Positions 9,869 to 64,000 of a stretch of 64,000 nt of DNA are shown piece after piece. The translations under genes and the position numbers were made by a program. The stretch comes from a phage. The notes beneath the pieces were generated by a model. It saw nothing but the letters and a program-made list of their open reading frames with translations. It had not been told where the DNA came from and searched no databases. The DNA lies in the sequence record PX423614.1; one strand, written 5' to 3'. Each line of letters opens with the position of its first letter. The first letter of the stretch is position 1.

Positions 9869-9944
9869 GCACCCTTAGCTCAATGGACAGAGCAGCGACC
9901 TTCTAAGTCGTTGGTTACAGGTTCGAATCCTGTAGGGTGCACCA
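9869..9944 (+). tRNA. tRNA-Arg (anticodon UCU)
   Basis: cloverleaf: acceptor GCACCCT/AGGGTGC, D-stem GCTC/GAGC, anticodon stem-loop with TCT at positions 34-36, T-arm ACAGG-TTCGAAT-CCTGT, encoded 3' CCA. Confidence 0.85.
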
Positions 9945-22387: not shown

Positions 22388-22630
22388 ATGTTGTCTATCG
22401 AAGATTTGATCAGCCGTGGAATGACCGAAGAAAAAGAGCCTCTGATTGTAGGCTCTCGTAAAGCTATCAACCAACTCTGTGAAGAGTTCGGTATCACAAA
22501 TAAGAGAATGATTGGTAATCAGTTCTCTGCAATCATCACCTTCCTCAAACGAGGTGATAAATGTTCAATGGAATGTGCTGAGCGTATCATCGCAATTGCA
22601 CAAGCAGATAAGGGAGTAACAAGTCTGTGA
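22388..22630 (+). CDS. hypothetical protein
   Basis: ORF track; AAAGGAA RBS. Confidence 0.45.
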   Translation: MLSIEDLISRGMTEEKEPLIVGSRKAINQLCEEFGITNKRMIGNQFSAIITFLKRGDKCSMECAERIIAIAQADKGVTSL

Positions 22631-28914: not shown

Positions 28915-28966
28915 TTGGTAGTAGATATGATAACTCTCAAATGTATATACAGTATAAGAATATTGT

Positions 28967-29314
28967 ATGAAACAGGAGAGAGTTATGTTAGATTTGAGTA
29001 AAGTGGCCCCGCCATCTGAAGAGATTAGCAAAGCTAAAGTTATGCAGCAGTTCTATCATCGTGATATGCTTGGTCGTTATATCAAGAATCGTGATGTTGT
29101 TGCATGGTCTATTGGAAATCAAGGTTATCTTCTCAAAGTGTTGCAAGTTACTGGCTCAACAGCCAAGCGAGTCAAAGTCTATGACCCTGAAATGGGGCGT
29201 TCTAAATCAGTAGACCCTCAGAATTGCATTGTTATCACACAACAGGTCATGGATAACATTGCTCGTAATGTAGCTAATTCAACTAACTTAGAAGGGGATG
29301 CACCTAATGCATAA
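28967..29314 (+). CDS. hypothetical protein
   Basis: ORF track; AAATGTATATA motif about 25 bp upstream. Confidence 0.45.
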   Translation: MKQERVMLDLSKVAPPSEEISKAKVMQQFYHRDMLGRYIKNRDVVAWSIGNQGYLLKVLQVTGSTAKRVKVYDPEMGRSKSVDPQNCIVITQQVMDNIARNVANSTNLEGDAPNA

Positions 29315-33776: not shown

Positions 33777-33823
33777 ACATAATGTATACTCCTTAGTGTA
33801 CACTGATATGTTAAGGAGTTGTG

Positions 33824-34138
33824 ATGACCGATAAGGCGAAACGTGATTATGCACAAGAACGAAGAACTGCAATCGCAAGGGGTGAGACCGGCGTTGGTAG
33901 CAAGAGCGGAGATGCTCAGCGCCACCGTGCACGTCGCATCGTTGAAAAGCGCGATGGAAAAGCTGCTGTCCGAGGTAAAGATGTTGGACACAAACGATCA
34001 ATCAAGTCGGGAGGTTCTAATGCGTCAAGTAACTTACGTGTTGAATCAGTCTCTCGAAATCGCTCGAACGGCGGCAAAAGTGGAGATCGTGCTGGAAAAT
34101 CAGCAGGCGGTCGCAAAGGAGCTTTAAGCTCAAGTTGA
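33824..34138 (+). CDS. highly basic Arg/Lys/Gly-rich protein
   Basis: AAGGAG RBS 9 nt before ATG; TAATGTATA motif 36 bp upstream; an alternative overlapping frame (33843-34127) also stays open. Confidence 0.45.
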   Translation: MTDKAKRDYAQERRTAIARGETGVGSKSGDAQRHRARRIVEKRDGKAAVRGKDVGHKRSIKSGGSNASSNLRVESVSRNRSNGGKSGDRAGKSAGGRKGALSSS

Positions 34139-35075: not shown

Positions 35076-36770
35076 GTGATGGATAACCCTGATAAGTTAC
35101 CTTTCATAACGGAGATGACAGTCGCTGATATAATCTCAAAACAGGCGAAGCATGGAGTCAACTTCAACAGAAGAAACGCTCGGTGGTTTGTTCACCTTCT
35201 CAAAGAGATTATTGTCAATATTGATAAAGAACTGATTCCTCTCCTCCCCAAAATGCGGGTGGATGGTTCAACTTATTCCAAACCTTTTAAGAAGTCCGGT
35301 GCTTTACAGAAGTGGCCTCAACTCTATTGTGATAGGGTTGGTCTTAAAAGAGAAGATATCGGTGGGGCGTTTACTTGCGTTGAGTATGTAGACTTTGACC
35401 CATCAAAAGATGCACGTATCAAAGAAGCCTTGATGGATGAAGGTTTTATACCTCCAGAGTGGAATTATTCTAAGAAACCTTGGAATACTTTTGAAATTCG
35501 TAAAGCTATGAAGAAGTATGGTACATACTCTGCATGGTATTCTGCTTGGATTCGAGGTAACGCTAAAGAGAAACAGACAGCAGAGATGATAGATGCTGAT
35601 ATCCGAAGGTTTTTGGATAAACACTTCCGTTATCATACTGTCAATTATATGAAAGCCTATGTCAGCGGTTTAGGTCTTAACCCTAACAGGAAGAAGCCTG
35701 TAACCTTTGATGAAATCAAAAAAGTTTTGGCTACATCAAACAAGTGGCCTACAGCCCCTACAAACCTTGAGGAGACTCTTGAAGAGGGGCTTGGGGGTGA
35801 GCTAGGGGGTGTAGGAAGTTTGCTTAAGAGACGCGTTGTAGCGGCTCACAGGCTAGGTTTGATTAGCGGGCTTATCGACAAGGAACGTAAAGATGGTAAG
35901 TTGTCCGCCGAAGCTAATAGCTGCGCTACTCCGACATTTCGTTTTAAACATCGCATTGTTGTTAATATTCCTTCTCGCGGTTTGTTTGGTCACGAGTGCC
36001 GCAGTCTTTTTCAATCTGACTATTCCTCAGACGATAGTCATAACCATCCTTTCATCATTACCAACCATATCCCTGATGGGTGTTACGTACGAAAGGGTAC
36101 TAACATTATCTATGAAATGGGAAAACCGGGCAAGAAAGACAAACCAATAGGTGCTTATAAATTTTATGTACCTGCTGGTCGTGAAGTCTTCTTAGGTTAT
36201 GATGGCTCTGGTCTTGAGCTGAGGATGCTCGCTCACTACCTTATCAAAGAGTGTCGTGAGATGCTCGCTGAAGCAGAGCGGGAAAACAACCCAGCTAAGA
36301 AACGGGAAGCTGAACGCGGTCTAGCTTCTGCTGTTATGTACAGAGATATTCTTTTAGAAGGAGATATTCACTCACATAACCAAAAACTTGCTGGCCTTCC
36401 TACTCGTGATAATGCTAAAACATTTATCTACGCATTCAACTACGGAGCTGGTGACGCTAAGTTAGGAAGCATCGTAGGTGGTGGCTCTGACGAAGGGGCT
36501 ATCATGAGAGCAAGATTCTTAGCAGAGAATCCTTGTATTGCAATCCTTATTGAACGTATGACAGAGAAAGCACAAAGTGGATATATCTACGGTGTGGATG
36601 GACGTCGTATTACAATGAGAAGAGATGCAACTGGAAAGGTTATGGTCCATAAAGCCTTAAATACGCTCCTACAGAGCGCTGGGGCGATTGTTATGAAGTA
36701 TGCAATGCTATTCCTCAATAAATGGATTGAGCGTGATGGTGTTCGTTGTGCGAAGGTTATCGACATGCAT
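35076..36770 (+). CDS. DNA polymerase family A polymerase domain, exon 1 (thumb, palm, fingers through motif-C His)
   Basis: aligns with T7 DNA polymerase and Klenow: motif A DGSGLELR, motif B RDNAKTFIYAFNYGAG, KALNTLLQSAGA; exon ends at the motif-C His codon CAT at 36768-36770. Confidence 0.8.
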
Positions 36771-40277: not shown

Positions 40278-40610
40278 AAGTTATTGTTTTAAGTTAAGTT
40301 TTCTTTTGATTTTAATAGAGAATCAAAGTCCTAGGAGTCCTCAACCTAAATCAAGGATTTCCTTAATTCTCTATTTTTATCTCGCAGGTGTCTCCTGCCC
40401 TTCGGTACTTGCAAGGGTTACAATGATTGCCCAATATACAAGCCTGCAATAGCTTTACTAGCTATACCATATATACATTACTACTTGTCATTATCTACTA
40501 CCAAAAAGGTTATAGTATAATAGAACCTTATCTGTATAAGTGTAATGTATATAGTATACAAACCGCTCAAAGAGAGCAACAATCTTAAATCTATATAAGG
40601 AAATATTAAT

Positions 40611-41351
40611 ATGTCTATGATCCCTGAACTGTCTGTATCCCGTAAATCCAACTACGATGTAATCCCTGATGGTGAGTACGAAGCACGTATTGTTCGTGTT
40701 GTAGGTTTGGGTGTTCACAATCGTGACCCTTGGATTGACCCTAAAACCAAAGCAGTTACTCCTAAGAACCCAGCTTTCCGTATGGACTTAGCTTTTGAGC
40801 TGATTGGCGTAGATGCAACAGGGACTGATAATGAAGGCAAACCTCTGGACCCTCGTCCTGCTTGCCAGTTTAAATCTTTTGATGTAAACCCACGAGCTAA
40901 GAACTCTGGTATTCTAAATCTGATTAAAATGATCGACCCAAGTGTTCAAGCACTGAAAGGTGATTTGGGTTGGTTTAAAGATATGCTGTTAGGTCAGCCT
41001 GTTAACATTCTGGTTAACTCTTACACCAATAAAGCTGGTGAGAAGAAAAACTCCATTAAAAGCATCACTCCAATCCCGACTAAATATCGTGACGCGGTAG
41101 GTGCTCCTCGTAGTGAGTTGATCTTCTTCGAACCATATGCTGAGACTGATGCTAACTTAGCTGCTTATCAAGCAATCTTCCCATTCCAACGTAACCTCTT
41201 GACTCAAGCTAATGATGCTAAGAACATTCCTCTGGCTGGTCGTGAAGTTACCAAAGCTTCTGACACTGAACAGAAGGACGCAACTCCGAGTATCCCTACT
41301 ATTAATGAAGAGCCGCAGTCTACCTTTGAAGAGGACGACTCTCCATTCTAA
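40611..41351 (+). CDS. putative single-stranded DNA-binding protein (T7 gp2.5-like architecture)
   Basis: acidic C-terminal tail ending in Phe (EEDDSPF); strong RBS, upstream TAATGTATA motifs and strong terminator downstream; assignment by architecture only. Confidence 0.35.
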   Translation: MSMIPELSVSRKSNYDVIPDGEYEARIVRVVGLGVHNRDPWIDPKTKAVTPKNPAFRMDLAFELIGVDATGTDNEGKPLDPRPACQFKSFDVNPRAKNSGILNLIKMIDPSVQALKGDLGWFKDMLLGQPVNILVNSYTNKAGEKKNSIKSITPIPTKYRDAVGAPRSELIFFEPYAETDANLAAYQAIFPFQRNLLTQANDAKNIPLAGREVTKASDTEQKDATPSIPTINEEPQSTFEEDDSPF

Positions 41352-41373: not shown

Positions 41374-41397
41374 AGCCACCTTCGGGTGGCTTTTTTC
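41374..41397 (+). terminator. rho-independent terminator
   Basis: AGCCACC-ttcg-GGTGGCT followed by TTTTTT. Confidence 0.7.
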
Positions 41398-41409
41398 GTT
41401 GGAGTTAAA

Positions 41410-42147: not shown

Positions 42148-42798
42148 ATGAAGAAGAAGACAACACCCACACGCTATCGTATTCATGGCATTCCTATTAA
42201 ATATTATCCAACCTTCGATGAATTTTATCGAGAGAACTGGAAAGTTGTGCATAAGTATTTTATGTATGACATTAAAGATTATCACGAGGCAGAGGATGTT
42301 GCTCAGGAAGTGTTACTGAACGCTTGGCGTTTTGTATTTGCAAAGCAAGAAGAACTTCTGCTCACTGATGAAAAAGATATTGAGCACATGACTTATCGTG
42401 TCAAGAATATCATCTGGTCGATTCGTTCTAATCGTCAGACAGTTGGAGACCGACGTATCTACTCTATTCCAGAAGCTGATATGTTTAGACCTCCTGAGAT
42501 GAATTCATGGGAAAGTCCTTTAGAGATTGCGATGGATAAGCATGATTCTACTGGAGACCCGTTCTTGGAATCTAGAATCTTTTTCTTCTTCCAAGACCTG
42601 AGTGACATTATGGAAAACCGTAAGATGGCAAGCATGTTCTCAATGCTCTTTCTCGGCATCCCACATGATCACATCCAGCAAGAGTTGGGAATTTCACACG
42701 GAACCTTCTATCGTCGTTATTCAGAGAATCGTGATCTGTATGAAGCGGTAGTAGAGAAGCACTTTGATAAAGAAGATCTTCAAGGGATGATTCAATAA
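42148..42798 (+). CDS. phage-encoded ECF-like sigma factor
   Basis: region-2-like [15 protein letters not shown] and C-terminal region-4-like helix-turn-helix [20 protein letters not shown]. Confidence 0.55.
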
Positions 42799-45291: not shown

Positions 45292-48200
45292 TTACTCCTT
45301 AGCTCGAACTCTAACACGAAGTTTAGCTTGACGCTTACTTCTCTCCAACTTGTCAGACAGAGAACCACGTTTGACTTTCAACTCTCCCTCGTCATTATAC
45401 TTCTCCAAGAACTGTAAATACTCTTGTCGAGTAGTTGTCTTGTAAGAAGGAATCTTAGCATTAGGATTCGCTTCAATCACACGTCTAATCTTAGCTACAT
45501 CATCCCTCCCTAAAAGTTTCCCTTTAGCTTGTTCTGCTGTAGAACCAAAGATTTTCTCAAGTGCTCGAGATTTGTTACCACCTGCTGAAGCAGCACCAAG
45601 TTTCGCAATAGCAGAATAATCATCAGCACTAAACCAAGCCACTGGATTATCTCCATAACGTTTCTTGTTCTCAGCAGCAGTCTGTAGAGCACGCACAAAT
45701 CGACGGTTGTTACCAGCCTTATCTGCACCATGAACCCTATCTAGAACCTCTGCAACACTCGCCAACTCCTGCAAGTCTTTCCCTTCAATAAAAGCTTTCT
45801 CTGCTTTGTTAGCAAAGTCATCTTCCTGCTTCTTAATACTTTCAAGAATATCAGAGTTAGCCTGAGATCTTTCATCCTCAGGTAGAGCCGAACGAATCTT
45901 CTCCATTTCTTTCTCTTCATCTAAAAGTTTCTTAAAGTCAGAATCAACTTTACGAGCATCTTCGATAGCTTTTGATGTTTCTGCATCAAGGTCAGAAGCT
46001 TTCCCATCTGCATCACCAGTTGCCTTAGCAATCTCTCTTTCGATTGGAGTAGCTGTTTCATACTTCTTAACAAACTTCTCTACGTCAGATTCGATACGAG
46101 CACGAGCATTCTGATGTTCCACTGGAGTCATAGGTTTCTCTAACAAAGCATACCGATTGTCCATATAAGAACCAGCATACGCTTCAGCATCCTCCCTAGA
46201 AACCCCCTTCTCTTCCAGAGTATTGACTAAACGCTTATGAATGTCATCACGTTGACGTTGAACTGCCATTAGGTCATTCTCTCGTTCCTGAGCTTCTTTC
46301 AGAGCCTTATCTCTCTTCACTCTAGAATCAATATCAAACCTACGGTTCATTTCCTCAGCCTGTTCATACATCCTATTCCACTTAGCCTCACGAGCATCTT
46401 CCTCTGCTTCGGTCAAACGACGTTTGCGATCGAGATAATCACTCTCAGCGTTGTGAATACGTTCAATAATACTACGGAAACGCTCTGGTGGTACTGGAGA
46501 GTTTTTATCGTGGTGAGCAGCAAGCTGTTTCAAAGTACGACCTTCCTGAGCTTCTCTGACACTTTCAGGCAATTCTTTGAACATCTTCTCCATCTCGGAT
46601 TTCTGAGCCGCTATAGCTTCCAAGGACTGCTTTTCAGCTTCCATAGCTGCCTTGGCATCATTACGAGCCTTAGCTCTGTTACGGAGCGTCTCAAGACGTT
46701 CTTGACGTGCTTGCAAGTGTTTAGCCGCTGCTTCGTATTGAGAGTTCTTGTTAGCCTTGTTGAACATGTTAACTTCTCGGTTATAGGTATTAATAAACCC
46801 ATCCCACACATCCTTCATTTGACCAACTTCCAAAGCCTCAACCCTTCCAGCTTTCTCTGAAGATTTAAACTTACTCTCCACAAAGTCTTCCATGATCTTA
46901 CGCATAGCATCTTTCTGAGCAGGACGTAAAGGTTCTGCATCAAGCAGTGTACCAATTTCATCCTGAAGCTCTTTCTTCTGATCTACCAGTTTAGGAGCAT
47001 CTTTCTTGTCAAACGCTTTATTCTCTTCCAGAGCCTCTCGATAGAGACGGTCAAATTCATCATCTCTCTGTTTCTGATATAAACGTTCAGCTCTTCGTTT
47101 CAGTGAATCTAGGCTTGTGACGTTTCCACCCAAACCCTTCTCTTCAGCACGTAAAGCCTTAGTAGCAATATCAGAAGGCAATCCACGCTCTTTTACCCAA
47201 TCAGCAAAAGAAGAACGAACATGTTGAGACTTAGCAGAAGCAATACCTTGCTGTGAAGCTAGCTGGTTTCTAGCCATCTCTTCATGACGCTGTGTGTTGT
47301 TTGCTTGGTCTTCCTGACGGATACGACGCATAAGCTCTTTAGGGTCTCCTTTATAAGAAAGGAAGTTTTCCGCAGTAGCTTTAGCTTTAGCAGCAGCCGA
47401 ATACAAAGAACGAGCAAATCGGTCAGCACGATCTTTTGTTGCCTGACGGGCAGCAGTTGACATGGAAGCCAGACGCTCTACACCGAGTGATGGTTTAACA
47501 GGCTCAGGAGCCTTCTCAGGAGCTTTAGGCGCACGAGCAGGTAATGGCTCAGGTTTCTCTTGAGGTTCCTCTACGGTCTTCTCAGGAGCTTCTTTGGCAC
47601 GTTCTGCTTCCTCTGCTTCTTGACGTTTCTTCGCTTCTGCTACAGCCCTGCGCTGAGCTACTAGCTCTCTCGCTGTCAATGCTTCTTGCTGTGGTTCAGG
47701 TTCTGGAGTAGTGCTTTCTTGAGCCTGAGCAGCTTCCGCTTCTTGACGTCTAAGTTCTGCTTGTTGTAGAGCACGTCTTTGAGCAACTAAATCTCTTGCC
47801 GTAAGAGGTGTTTCAGTAGGAGCTGGAGAGGAAGGAATTTCTTCCGTCACAGTAGTAGCAGAAGGCTCCTCACGAACCGGTTCGGAAGGGGCATCATTTT
47901 GGGTACGGAATTTGATGTCTTCTGTGGTTGGTTCTTCTTCCATTTTTGCTCTTGCTTCTTCGGCTTGAGTTCTAGCTCGTTGTACTTCTAAATCCGCTCT
48001 AGCCAAAGAACGAATAGCTTCACTATTAGCTGACTGTTGTTTCTCTCGTTGAGCACGAGCACGGTCAGAAGTGAAACGATTAAGCACATACTTAGCCGCA
48101 CCAAGAGGATTCTTAACCAAGACAGGAGCTGGAGCTTCACGGAAACCATCATCAGTCAGAGAGGTCCAACCGCGATCTTGGTTGCTCATGAACTTAGCCG

Positions 48201-49737
48201 TGTTATTTAAAGTGAAAGCATCTTGAATAGGATTAAACCCTTCAGGCATACCTTTCAGTTTCTTCAACCCACCAATAGCCTTCTTCATCTCTGGAGAAAC
48301 ATTCTCAGAGAGTTTTTGCAACTGAGTAGCTTTATCAATAAAGTTATTTAGATCTTCACCATCACGAGCTTTGAAACGATTTGCTTCACTGTAGAAGGTC
48401 TTGTAGGCATCAATAAAGTCACGGTCAGCTTGTGTACGATTCTTAATGTCAATAGCACTACCGGTAAAGTCACCACTCGCTCGGAGAGCTACTAACTCTC
48501 GGTCTAGGTTGTCTAGAACATCAGTAAGAGCTTTGGTGTTGTCTTTAGTGTAGTCAGCCATCGCATCTTTCATTGCTACAGCTTGTTTCTGGTTATACTC
48601 ATTGTCAGCAAAAGCTTTACCTTGAGTCTTCTTAGGAGAAGCTAAAGGATTGAGACCGGGAACGTTAGAACTGTCTTTCTGAACAGTAGCAGCCTTCTCT
48701 GCACGACTTTGGTCTGTATTTAAGATGCGCTGAACAGCAGGAGAATCCATAGCAACTGCATCAGTGATACGGAAACCGTTTTCATCTAGAAGATTTAAAG
48801 CAGAAGCAGCATTAGCATTCTCAGCTTTAGAGTAGGCTTCACGAAGTTCATCAGCATTAGCAGCTTTACGAATCACTTCATCTTCAGCAGCAATGTCAGT
48901 TTTAACATGCTCAGGAGTACGGTCAAATACTTGAGGGCTAGAACGACTTATCAATCCATGAACCCCACCAATTGCCCCACCATAAGCAGCACCAAGTGCA
49001 CCCTCTTCAATAGCCCCTTCTAAGACATTAGCGAGAGTAGTATCATCCCCATGTTTGTTCTGAGCTTCAGCAGCACCTACAATAGCACCACCCTTAGCAC
49101 CCGCAACTGCGTTGGAAGCTACGCTCTGTCCTACACGACCAAGAGTCGTAGAAGCTGTACCAGTCATACCCGGAAGGATTTTCTGAGCAGCGTAGTTAGC
49201 GCCACCAACAAGAGCAGCATCCAGAACTGATTTGTCTTCATCTTCTTTTGGAGTTTGGTCAGCATATGCACGACCTGTTTCACGAGCCGCAATAACAGCA
49301 GCAGCAACAGCAGGGTTTGCAACTGTCAAACCAATATCAGCAGCAACTCCAGCATACTGACCAGCTGTTTTACCAAAACCATCTTCTATCTTAGATAAGC
49401 GCTCTTCCAACAATTGCTTGGAGTTCTCTTGAATACGCTTACCGTAGCTTGTTTCTGAACCAGTTAAGTTTTCACCAATCTCTACCAGCCCACCTATACC
49501 TCTAGCAGCACTAGCTGCAATGTTAGCACCACCAGATTGAAGAGCGTTAGACACACCTTGAGCAAACTCCCCAATAGCACCTCGTTCTTCTTGTTGTGGT
49601 TGCTCTTGTGGTTGAGTCTCAGGAATAGTGCCCCCTGCTGCCTTGTATTGTTCTCTCATTTGAGCCTGTTGCTCTGGAGAGGCATTCAGATACGCAGGAG
49701 CTTTGGAAGCTTCTTCCCACGATTTTAAATTAGCCAT
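45292..49737 (-). CDS. large internal virion protein (1481 aa)
   Basis: very long ORF with Ala/Gly-rich N-terminal region and extensive charged helical segments; TAATGTATA motif about 50 bp upstream on the - strand. Confidence 0.6.
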   Translation of the reverse strand: MANLKSWEEASKAPAYLNASPEQQAQMREQYKAAGGTIPETQPQEQPQQEERGAIGEFAQGVSNALQSGGANIAASAARGIGGLVEIGENLTGSETSYGKRIQENSKQLLEERLSKIEDGFGKTAGQYAGVAADIGLTVANPAVAAAVIAARETGRAYADQTPKEDEDKSVLDAALVGGANYAAQKILPGMTGTASTTLGRVGQSVASNAVAGAKGGAIVGAAEAQNKHGDDTTLANVLEGAIEEGALGAAYGGAIGGVHGLISRSSPQVFDRTPEHVKTDIAAEDEVIRKAANADELREAYSKAENANAASALNLLDENGFRITDAVAMDSPAVQRILNTDQSRAEKAATVQKDSSNVPGLNPLASPKKTQGKAFADNEYNQKQAVAMKDAMADYTKDNTKALTDVLDNLDRELVALRASGDFTGSAIDIKNRTQADRDFIDAYKTFYSEANRFKARDGEDLNNFIDKATQLQKLSENVSPEMKKAIGGLKKLKGMPEGFNPIQDAFTLNNTAKFMSNQDRGWTSLTDDGFREAPAPVLVKNPLGAAKYVLNRFTSDRARAQREKQQSANSEAIRSLARADLEVQRARTQAEEARAKMEEEPTTEDIKFRTQNDAPSEPVREEPSATTVTEEIPSSPAPTETPLTARDLVAQRRALQQAELRRQEAEAAQAQESTTPEPEPQQEALTARELVAQRRAVAEAKKRQEAEEAERAKEAPEKTVEEPQEKPEPLPARAPKAPEKAPEPVKPSLGVERLASMSTAARQATKDRADRFARSLYSAAAKAKATAENFLSYKGDPKELMRRIRQEDQANNTQRHEEMARNQLASQQGIASAKSQHVRSSFADWVKERGLPSDIATKALRAEEKGLGGNVTSLDSLKRRAERLYQKQRDDEFDRLYREALEENKAFDKKDAPKLVDQKKELQDEIGTLLDAEPLRPAQKDAMRKIMEDFVESKFKSSEKAGRVEALEVGQMKDVWDGFINTYNREVNMFNKANKNSQYEAAAKHLQARQERLETLRNRAKARNDAKAAMEAEKQSLEAIAAQKSEMEKMFKELPESVREAQEGRTLKQLAAHHDKNSPVPPERFRSIIERIHNAESDYLDRKRRLTEAEEDAREAKWNRMYEQAEEMNRRFDIDSRVKRDKALKEAQERENDLMAVQRQRDDIHKRLVNTLEEKGVSREDAEAYAGSYMDNRYALLEKPMTPVEHQNARARIESDVEKFVKKYETATPIEREIAKATGDADGKASDLDAETSKAIEDARKVDSDFKKLLDEEKEMEKIRSALPEDERSQANSDILESIKKQEDDFANKAEKAFIEGKDLQELASVAEVLDRVHGADKAGNNRRFVRALQTAAENKKRYGDNPVAWFSADDYSAIAKLGAASAGGNKSRALEKIFGSTAEQAKGKLLGRDDVAKIRRVIEANPNAKIPSYKTTTRQEYLQFLEKYNDEGELKVKRGSLSDKLERSKRQAKLRVRVRAKE

Positions 49738-49807
49738 AACGTCTCCTTATAAATAAAAATGTCCTACCTCCTATATACATTATAAGAGATAGGACTTAGG
49801 TCTTAGA

Positions 49808-63932: not shown

Positions 63933-64000
63933 ACCTGTGTTTGATGGAGTGGTACTTAGCGCTCCAATATTGAACCTTGCACCAGCAGCATCCCCAGCAC

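Follow-up and report, generated by a model that had tools for sequence, protein, structure and literature searches.

A probable phiEco32-type sigma factor and its promoter element in a Suseptimavirus-like coliphage

Does the 216-residue protein encoded at positions 42148-42798 serve as a phage sigma factor, and are the copies of a short motif lying 5' of several genes the promoters that it reads? We addressed this question in a stretch of 64,000 nucleotides of phage DNA (sequence record PX423614.1), referred to here as the window. The window belongs to a phiEco32-like coliphage of the Suseptimavirus group and has ~95% DNA identity to deposited genomes. All 99 phage records that match the region around the finding are from phages of Escherichia or Shigella that belong to the phiEco32 group within the subfamily Gordonclarkvirinae. 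Closest to the region are Bas86, NC-B, Bas87, SU7, IME267 and 101114UKE3 (~95-96% identity), ECBP2 is ~92% identical, and the closest matching genomes are Suseptimavirus-type. The orientation of the window is opposite to that of the phiEco32 record: as far as ~45.1 kb the + strand carries the early and middle genes, and from there on the - strand carries the late ones.

42148-42798, + strand: open reading frame with ATG start, 216 aa; gene for a homolog of the phiEco32 sigma factor gp36

The sequence AAGGA lies eight bases 5' of the ATG of this gene. The original prediction read its product as a phage sigma factor, and comparison with databases bears this out. The protein matches PHROG 1740, 'RNA polymerase sigma factor' (E=1e-43), is 80% identical to phiEco32 gp36 (172/214 residues) and matches chain F of PDB 9m7y, which is phiEco32 gp36, over residues 1-215 (phmmer, E=1e-117). 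Among the 99 related genomes, searched by tblastn, nine deposited genomes encode a 100% identical protein. Of the two sigma blocks originally proposed, the region-2-like one is weakly visible in Pfam (Sigma70_r2, PF04542, sub-threshold at E=0.0011, 19.1 bits against a cutoff of 24), while the region-4-like one drew no Pfam match to Sigma70_r4 or r4_2 even at E up to 10, its sigma4-like fold being known from the cryo-EM structure of the homolog. PDB matches to M. tuberculosis SigL do not rise above chance. The call of a sigma factor is thus weak from sequence profiles alone and rests on the phiEco32 experiments and structure. The weak Pfam matches as a whole (Sigma70_r2, DUF1492 and TetR_N) would also suit a rival reading, according to which the protein is an accessory DNA-binding regulator and the motif sites, TAATGTATA, are extended -10 sigma70 promoters (TGnTATA-like).

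Against that reading stands what has been established for the homolog. As summarised from Pavlova 2012 in PMC8948821 and described in PMC12276001, gp36 associates with the core RNA polymerase of E. coli and directs initiation from middle and late promoters that have the element tAATGTAtA. Solved by cryo-EM in a complex of E. coli RNA polymerase, gp79 and promoter DNA (PDB 9m7y), gp36 occupies the position of a sigma factor (PMC12276001). The N-terminal domain is sigma2-like, binds the clamp helices via D44, E47, E49, D50 and E54, and reads -14A, -13A, -12T and -11G through N95, S91, S94, E79 and H80, with W90, Y83 and R84 positioned at the fork junction (PMC12276001). The sigma4-like C-terminal domain sits on the flap-tip helix, where R187 and Y186 touch -37G and -34A (PMC12276001). 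Transcription was compromised or abolished when the contact residues, or the contacted bases, including those of AATG, were mutated (PMC12276001).

These contacts are preserved almost completely in the window. The residues that read and melt the -10 region (E79, H80, Y83, R84, W90, S91, S94 and N95) are all identical, as are the -35-region contacts Y186 and R187 and the acidic patch for the clamp helices (D44, E47, E49, D50 and E54). In the hydrophobic groove for the flap-tip helix, I142, F166, L167 and F204 are identical and M138 is conservatively replaced by L, which is the sole change among the published DNA- and polymerase-contact residues. The groove that receives gp79 (F146, M164, L167 and I169) is unchanged from gp36, and the inter-domain linker has an insertion of two residues relative to it. 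By analogy with gp36, we infer that the window's sigma factor binds core polymerase and initiates at the motif. The sigma gene's neighbours encode a 74-aa protein (PHROG 30479, function unassigned) and a dNMP kinase, and neither of these is anti-sigma-like.

The partner of gp36 is encoded as well:

22388-22630, + strand: gp79 homolog, 80 aa; by homology, sigma70 inhibitor and gp36 co-activator

This protein is 75% identical to phi32_79 (tblastn) and matches PDB 9m7y_G at E=8e-36. At the positions that contact gp36 and RNA polymerase it has either the same residues or conservative replacements, and in helix 1, which binds gp36, L9 and M14 are kept and both L6 and V10 are replaced by I. In phiEco32, gp79 inhibits the sigma70 and sigmaS holoenzymes and stimulates the gp36 holoenzyme 3- to 4-fold (PMC12276001). 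PHROG 8339, the group of the gp79 homolog, is still annotated as being of unknown function.

We then turn to the DNA element. Six gp36-dependent promoters have been mapped 5' of phiEco32 genes 6, 13, 26, 40, 58 and 68; their common element is tAATGTAtA, with start sites 6-8 bp downstream, according to the passages on these promoters in PMC8948821, PMC4331800 and PMC4281155. Supplementary Table S3 of PMC8948821 gives the same six elements in NJ01, ECBP2, KBNP1711, SU10 and 172-1, and gives the gene-68 promoter as aAATGTATA and the gene-6 promoter as TAATGTAgA. In the phiEco32 record the published elements were found at the expected places. In the window, the occurrences are as follows:

565-573, 33780-33788 and 40543-40551 on the + strand, 40472-40480 and 49774-49782 on the - strand: exact copies of TAATGTATA
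28939-28947, + strand: variant AAATGTATA

Motif enrichment had been named in the original prediction as a way to check the proposed promoters. The five exact copies in the window compare with 0.62 expected, an enrichment of ~8-fold, and none of 100 dinucleotide-preserving shuffles reached five. Four of the six copies of AATGTATA lie outside sense-strand open reading frames of at least 45 aa (binomial P ~6e-4, with the non-coding fraction of the window, ~8%, measured by open reading frames of the same minimum length), and the remaining two are covered only by TTG-start frames that are annotated in none of the relatives' records compared. When one mismatch was allowed, the search of the window gave no enrichment (20 copies against 19.8 expected), so that the signal is carried by the exact and near-exact motif only; the loose pattern AATGTANA was not enriched either. 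Near-variants within genes (52775, 53135, 55127 and others) were dismissed because the one-mismatch class is unenriched and the upstream element is missing. The flat one-mismatch count is one of two points in favor of a second rival, namely that the sigma factor is real but uses a different element, and that the motif copies are here by chance or inheritance and without function.

The placement of the copies bears on both rivals. Four of them lie 5' of genes whose phiEco32 counterparts have mapped gp36 promoters:

28915-28947, + strand: P68-type middle promoter, upstream element TTGGTAGTAGAT and core AAATGTATA at 28939-28947, the same aAATGTATA variant as in the published P68
33780-33788, + strand: core TAATGTATA of the P58-type middle promoter; the downstream open reading frame, 33821-34138, is 90% identical to gp58
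40543-40551, + strand: core TAATGTATA of the P40-type middle promoter; the downstream open reading frame, 40611-41351, is 84% identical to gp40
49774-49782, - strand: core TAATGTATA of the P26-type late promoter, 36 nt 5' of the gene for a 1481-aa protein

On sequence grounds, these four copies are orthologs of the experimentally mapped phiEco32 promoters P68, P58, P40 and P26. The motifs that had been noticed 5' of middle or late genes at 28939, 33780 and 40543 thus fall at the positions of P68, P58 and P40, with downstream open reading frames 84-92% identical to those of phiEco32. The minus-strand motif before the 1481-aa gene is likewise present and corresponds to P26, although the coordinate first given for it, 49784-49792, was wrong by 10. 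The frame downstream of the P68-type site is 92% identical to gp68, with its likely ATG at 28985, 37 nt past the motif, and the 1481-aa gene (45292-49737, - strand) is 81% identical to gp26. Across the four sites the distance from the end of the motif to the start codon is 32-59 nt. The equivalents of the late promoters P13 and P6 should lie beyond position 64000, because the end of the window falls within the gene-14/gene-15 tail-fibre region.

When ten published and orthologous promoters were aligned from -45 to +10, a common upstream element, roughly TT-purine-purine-N-A, was apparent. An A stands at -34 in 10/10 and a purine at -37 in 9/10 of these promoters (4/4 and 3/4, respectively, for the four of the window), in agreement with the structural contacts of gp36. 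Sites were scored with a two-block matrix for which the six published phiEco32 promoters were the sole training set; it superseded a first matrix with spacer columns, which was noisy and overlooked a divergent site 5' of gene 40 (anti-P40, described below). Scores were 16.6-23.9 for anti-P40 and three of the four orthologous promoters. P40, the core of which is invariant in 9 phages, scored 10.8 because its upstream element is shifted, lying 1 nt nearer the core than in phiEco32.

In none of the four orthologous sites does a TTGACA-like hexamer stand at sigma70 spacing; they carry instead the gp36 -35-region element, with A at -34, which speaks against extended -10 sigma70 promoters. For phiEco32, it has already been shown in vitro that such sites are used by core polymerase with the phage sigma factor and not by the sigma70 holoenzyme. 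That reading draws some support from the SU10 genome paper, which allows that some middle promoters might be read by sigma70 too (PMC4281155), and from the copy at 565-573, which overlaps a good sigma70 promoter:

548-575, + strand: sigma70-type early promoter TTGACA-16-TATAGT; TAATGTATA at 565-573 overlaps its spacer and -10 element

The early promoter is kept in phiEco32, SU7 and NC-B and is less exact in ECBP2, where the -35 hexamer is TTGTCG. The motif within it is not conserved. At 565-573 the sequence is TAATATATA in SU7 and NC-B and TATTATATA in ECBP2 and phiEco32, and the TAATGTATA of the window is the product of one or two lineage-specific substitutions. The site has G rather than A at -34 and a matrix score of 9.1. 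As a gp36 site it was rejected, since the relatives are without the specifically read G at -11, there is no A at -34 and the score is low. The overlap with a sigma70-like promoter that had been pointed out for this copy therefore exists, but it does not mark a conserved gp36 site; the copy is a lineage-specific coincidence within a conserved sigma70 promoter and is not taken as evidence of dual use. Its loss as an example also weighs against the accessory-regulator reading, which we regard as very improbable.

For the second rival, the coincidence at 565-573 is the other supporting point, an exact copy that arose in one lineage. It is set against the ~8-fold enrichment of the exact motif, the location of most AATGTATA copies outside open reading frames and their occurrence at orthologous promoter positions. 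Moreover, the motif is invariant across genera while the adjoining spacers vary, and the base-reading residues of the sigma factor are all unchanged. We give a sigma factor with a different element even less credence than an accessory regulator.

We conclude that the open reading frame at 42148-42798 very probably encodes the ortholog of phiEco32 gp36, a two-domain protein distantly related to sigma70, and that it drives the middle/late switch as in phiEco32. What supports this mechanism directly is that the protein is homologous, with its contact residues conserved, that the motif is enriched and that its copies lie at orthologous positions; binding to polymerase, start sites and timing are carried over from the phiEco32 experiments. 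The early genes would be read by the host sigma70 holoenzyme from promoters such as that at 548-575. The gp79 homolog would invade the RNA channel and displace sigma70 region 4 from the host RNA polymerase. On the core enzyme, the N-terminal domain of the phage sigma factor would contact the clamp helices, and its C-terminal domain would rest on both the flap-tip helix and helix 1 of gp79; the latter helix is expected to stabilise the factor on the polymerase. Its N-terminal domain would read and melt AATGTA, centred at -11.5, its C-terminal domain would touch -37/-34, and transcripts would start 6-8 nt 3' of tAATGTAtA. The predicted output in the window comprises the gene-68, gene-58 and gene-40 middle operons (+ strand) and the late gene 26 (- strand). 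For phiEco32, the temporal switch from sigma70 to a phage sigma factor that the original prediction proposed is already the published model, and the window encodes the gp79 homolog that would enforce it.

The closest known system is phiEco32 itself (Savalia 2008; Pavlova 2012; Xu et al. 2025, PDB 9m7y/9m7z). Both phages encode the orthologous sigma factor (80% identity) and the gp79 partner, both have the promoter element at the same four gene positions in the window, and both have early and middle genes on one strand and late genes on the other. They differ in genus, the window being Suseptimavirus-like; ECBP2, of the same genus as the window, has ~61% genome identity to phiEco32 according to the literature. 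They also differ 5' of the sigma gene, where phiEco32 has the macro-domain gene 37 and the window a 74-aa open reading frame. Salmonella phage 7-11 likewise has a phage sigma factor (SaPh711_gp47) encoded beside a gp40 homolog, and promoters in comparable places of the genome (PMC8948821). However, its sigma factor shows only ~15% identity and reads a bipartite promoter, GTAAtg-16-aCTA, and phage 7-11 is without gp79, host shut-off and a middle class (PMC8948821). The only promoter 5' of its gene 48 is the forward one.

ECF (group 4) sigma factors share the two-domain sigma2 plus sigma4 architecture, judging by the gp36 structure, whereas the window's sigma factor stays below the Pfam threshold for region 2 and lacks a region-4 profile match. 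ECF factors typically use a -35/-10 pair, in contrast to the extended 9-nt -10-like core element of the gp36 type, and gp36-type factors, unlike ECF factors, are stabilised by a phage co-activator, gp79. An analogous arrangement is AsiA/MotA of phage T4, where a small protein disables sigma70 region 4 and a second one supplies new promoter specificity (PMC12276001). T4 keeps and remodels sigma70, whereas a phiEco32-type phage replaces it with a phage sigma factor.

The sigma factor, promoter element, promoter positions and switch are already known from phiEco32 (2008-2012, with the structure in 2025), and the promoters are already tabulated for relatives of the window phage (PMC8948821 Supplementary Table S3). 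The main finding thus adds nothing new. Its value is that of a positive control, in that sequence reading alone recovered a real regulatory system.

The one item of the analysis that is possibly new is the divergent site 5' of gene 40, which the original prediction had missed.

40472-40504, - strand: candidate seventh gp36-type promoter 'anti-P40', upstream element TTGGTAGTAGAT, spacer of 12 nt, TAATGTATA core at 40472-40480

Anti-P40 stands back to back with P40, 62 bp apart and in the opposite direction. With P68 it has in common both the exact upstream sequence, TTGGTAGTAGAT, and the 12-nt spacing, and it is the top-scoring site of the whole window (23.9, two-block matrix). In a comparison of nine phages spanning three genera (Suseptimavirus, Kuravirus and Nieuwekanaalvirus), 11/11 positions of the core and 10/11 of the upstream element are invariant, compared with 0/12 of the spacer; elements that stay invariant while the spacer drifts are the pattern of a working promoter. 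ES17 keeps both elements despite an insertion of ~150 nt between anti-P40 and P40, and phiEco32 (EU330206.1) has the same divergent arrangement at 36682-36712 on the + strand, with the core at 36704-36712. The published six-promoter lists (PMC4331800; PMC8948821 Supplementary Table S3) do not include anti-P40, and a search of the literature on phiEco32 antisense transcription and Kuravirus transcriptomes found nothing relevant. In phage 7-11 there is no divergent promoter at the equivalent place 5' of gene 48. Judged by its conservation, anti-P40 is likely a real gp36 promoter.

Anti-P40 faces away from all middle genes, into a largely invariant non-coding stretch.

40300-40466, - strand: non-coding but conserved DNA downstream of anti-P40, lying between gene 40 and the phosphoesterase gene
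40448-40466, - strand: hairpin beside the predicted anti-P40 start, paired in 100% of cells, seven distinct sequences
40330-40412, - strand: conserved block with a long hairpin, 76/83 positions invariant

In the hairpin at 40448-40466, two pairs are changed on both sides (compensatory changes), and one G-C pair is changed to G-U, which would be a C-A mismatch on the + strand. The consensus folds of the minus strand are the more stable ones, by 5.4-8.4 kcal/mol; z-scores from single-sequence folding fail to separate the strands (-2.75 and -2.74). The middle module of the stretch is replaceable and occurs in two unrelated forms among the relatives. Read on the + strand, the long hairpin of the 40330-40412 block precedes TTTTTAT and is probably the terminator of the operon upstream. 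Minus-strand open reading frames downstream of anti-P40 do not exceed 28 aa, Rfam gave no match for the region upstream of gene 40, and nothing similar to the conserved block turned up in E. coli genomes; in IMG/VR scans the block was found only in the same phage group.

A seventh gp36-dependent promoter on the - strand that makes a middle/late small RNA, an antisense transcript or an origin-activating transcript near gene 40 is a tentative proposal, to which we assign somewhat less than even chances. If real, anti-P40 and the block would add an uncharted transcript to a system that is a structural model for sigma replacement. The lead is a modest one that might show how the gene-40 region is regulated or how DNA replication starts.

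Several further features of the gene-40 region were observed. The leader of gene 40, downstream of P40 (40558-40610, + strand, AACCGCTCAAAGAGAGCAACAATCT...), has 41 of 53 positions invariant across genera and is far more conserved than the adjacent non-coding DNA; it could be a translational operator. Within the conserved block, the 9 nt ATTTCCTTA (40357-40365) are perfectly complementary to the gene-40 ribosome-binding site, TAAGGAAAT (40596-40604), and in phiEco32 the same complementarity extends over 7 nt. Read-through transcripts from upstream could mask the ribosome-binding site in this way, whereas transcripts started at P40 could not. The product of gene 40 (40611-41351, + strand) has an acidic C-terminus, ...FEEDDSPF, that recalls the C-termini of single-strand DNA-binding proteins, and one related record annotates gp40 as such. 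This stays a hint of single-strand DNA binding, because gp40 has no match in Pfam, annotated PHROGs or PDB sequences. Directly 3' of gene 40 there is a strong intrinsic terminator (41374-41400, + strand), AGCCACCTTCGGGTGGCT followed by TTTTTT. It sits between P40 and the sigma gene, and the route by which the sigma gene is transcribed is not obvious.

Elsewhere in the window, a tRNA-Arg with anticodon TCT is encoded at 9869-9944 (+ strand), as is also the case in phiEco32 and YF01. The non-coding DNA at 290-440, 5' of the first early promoter, contains repeated CTTACCC and CTACCCGTT-like words, which may have to do with packaging or with the genome terminus.
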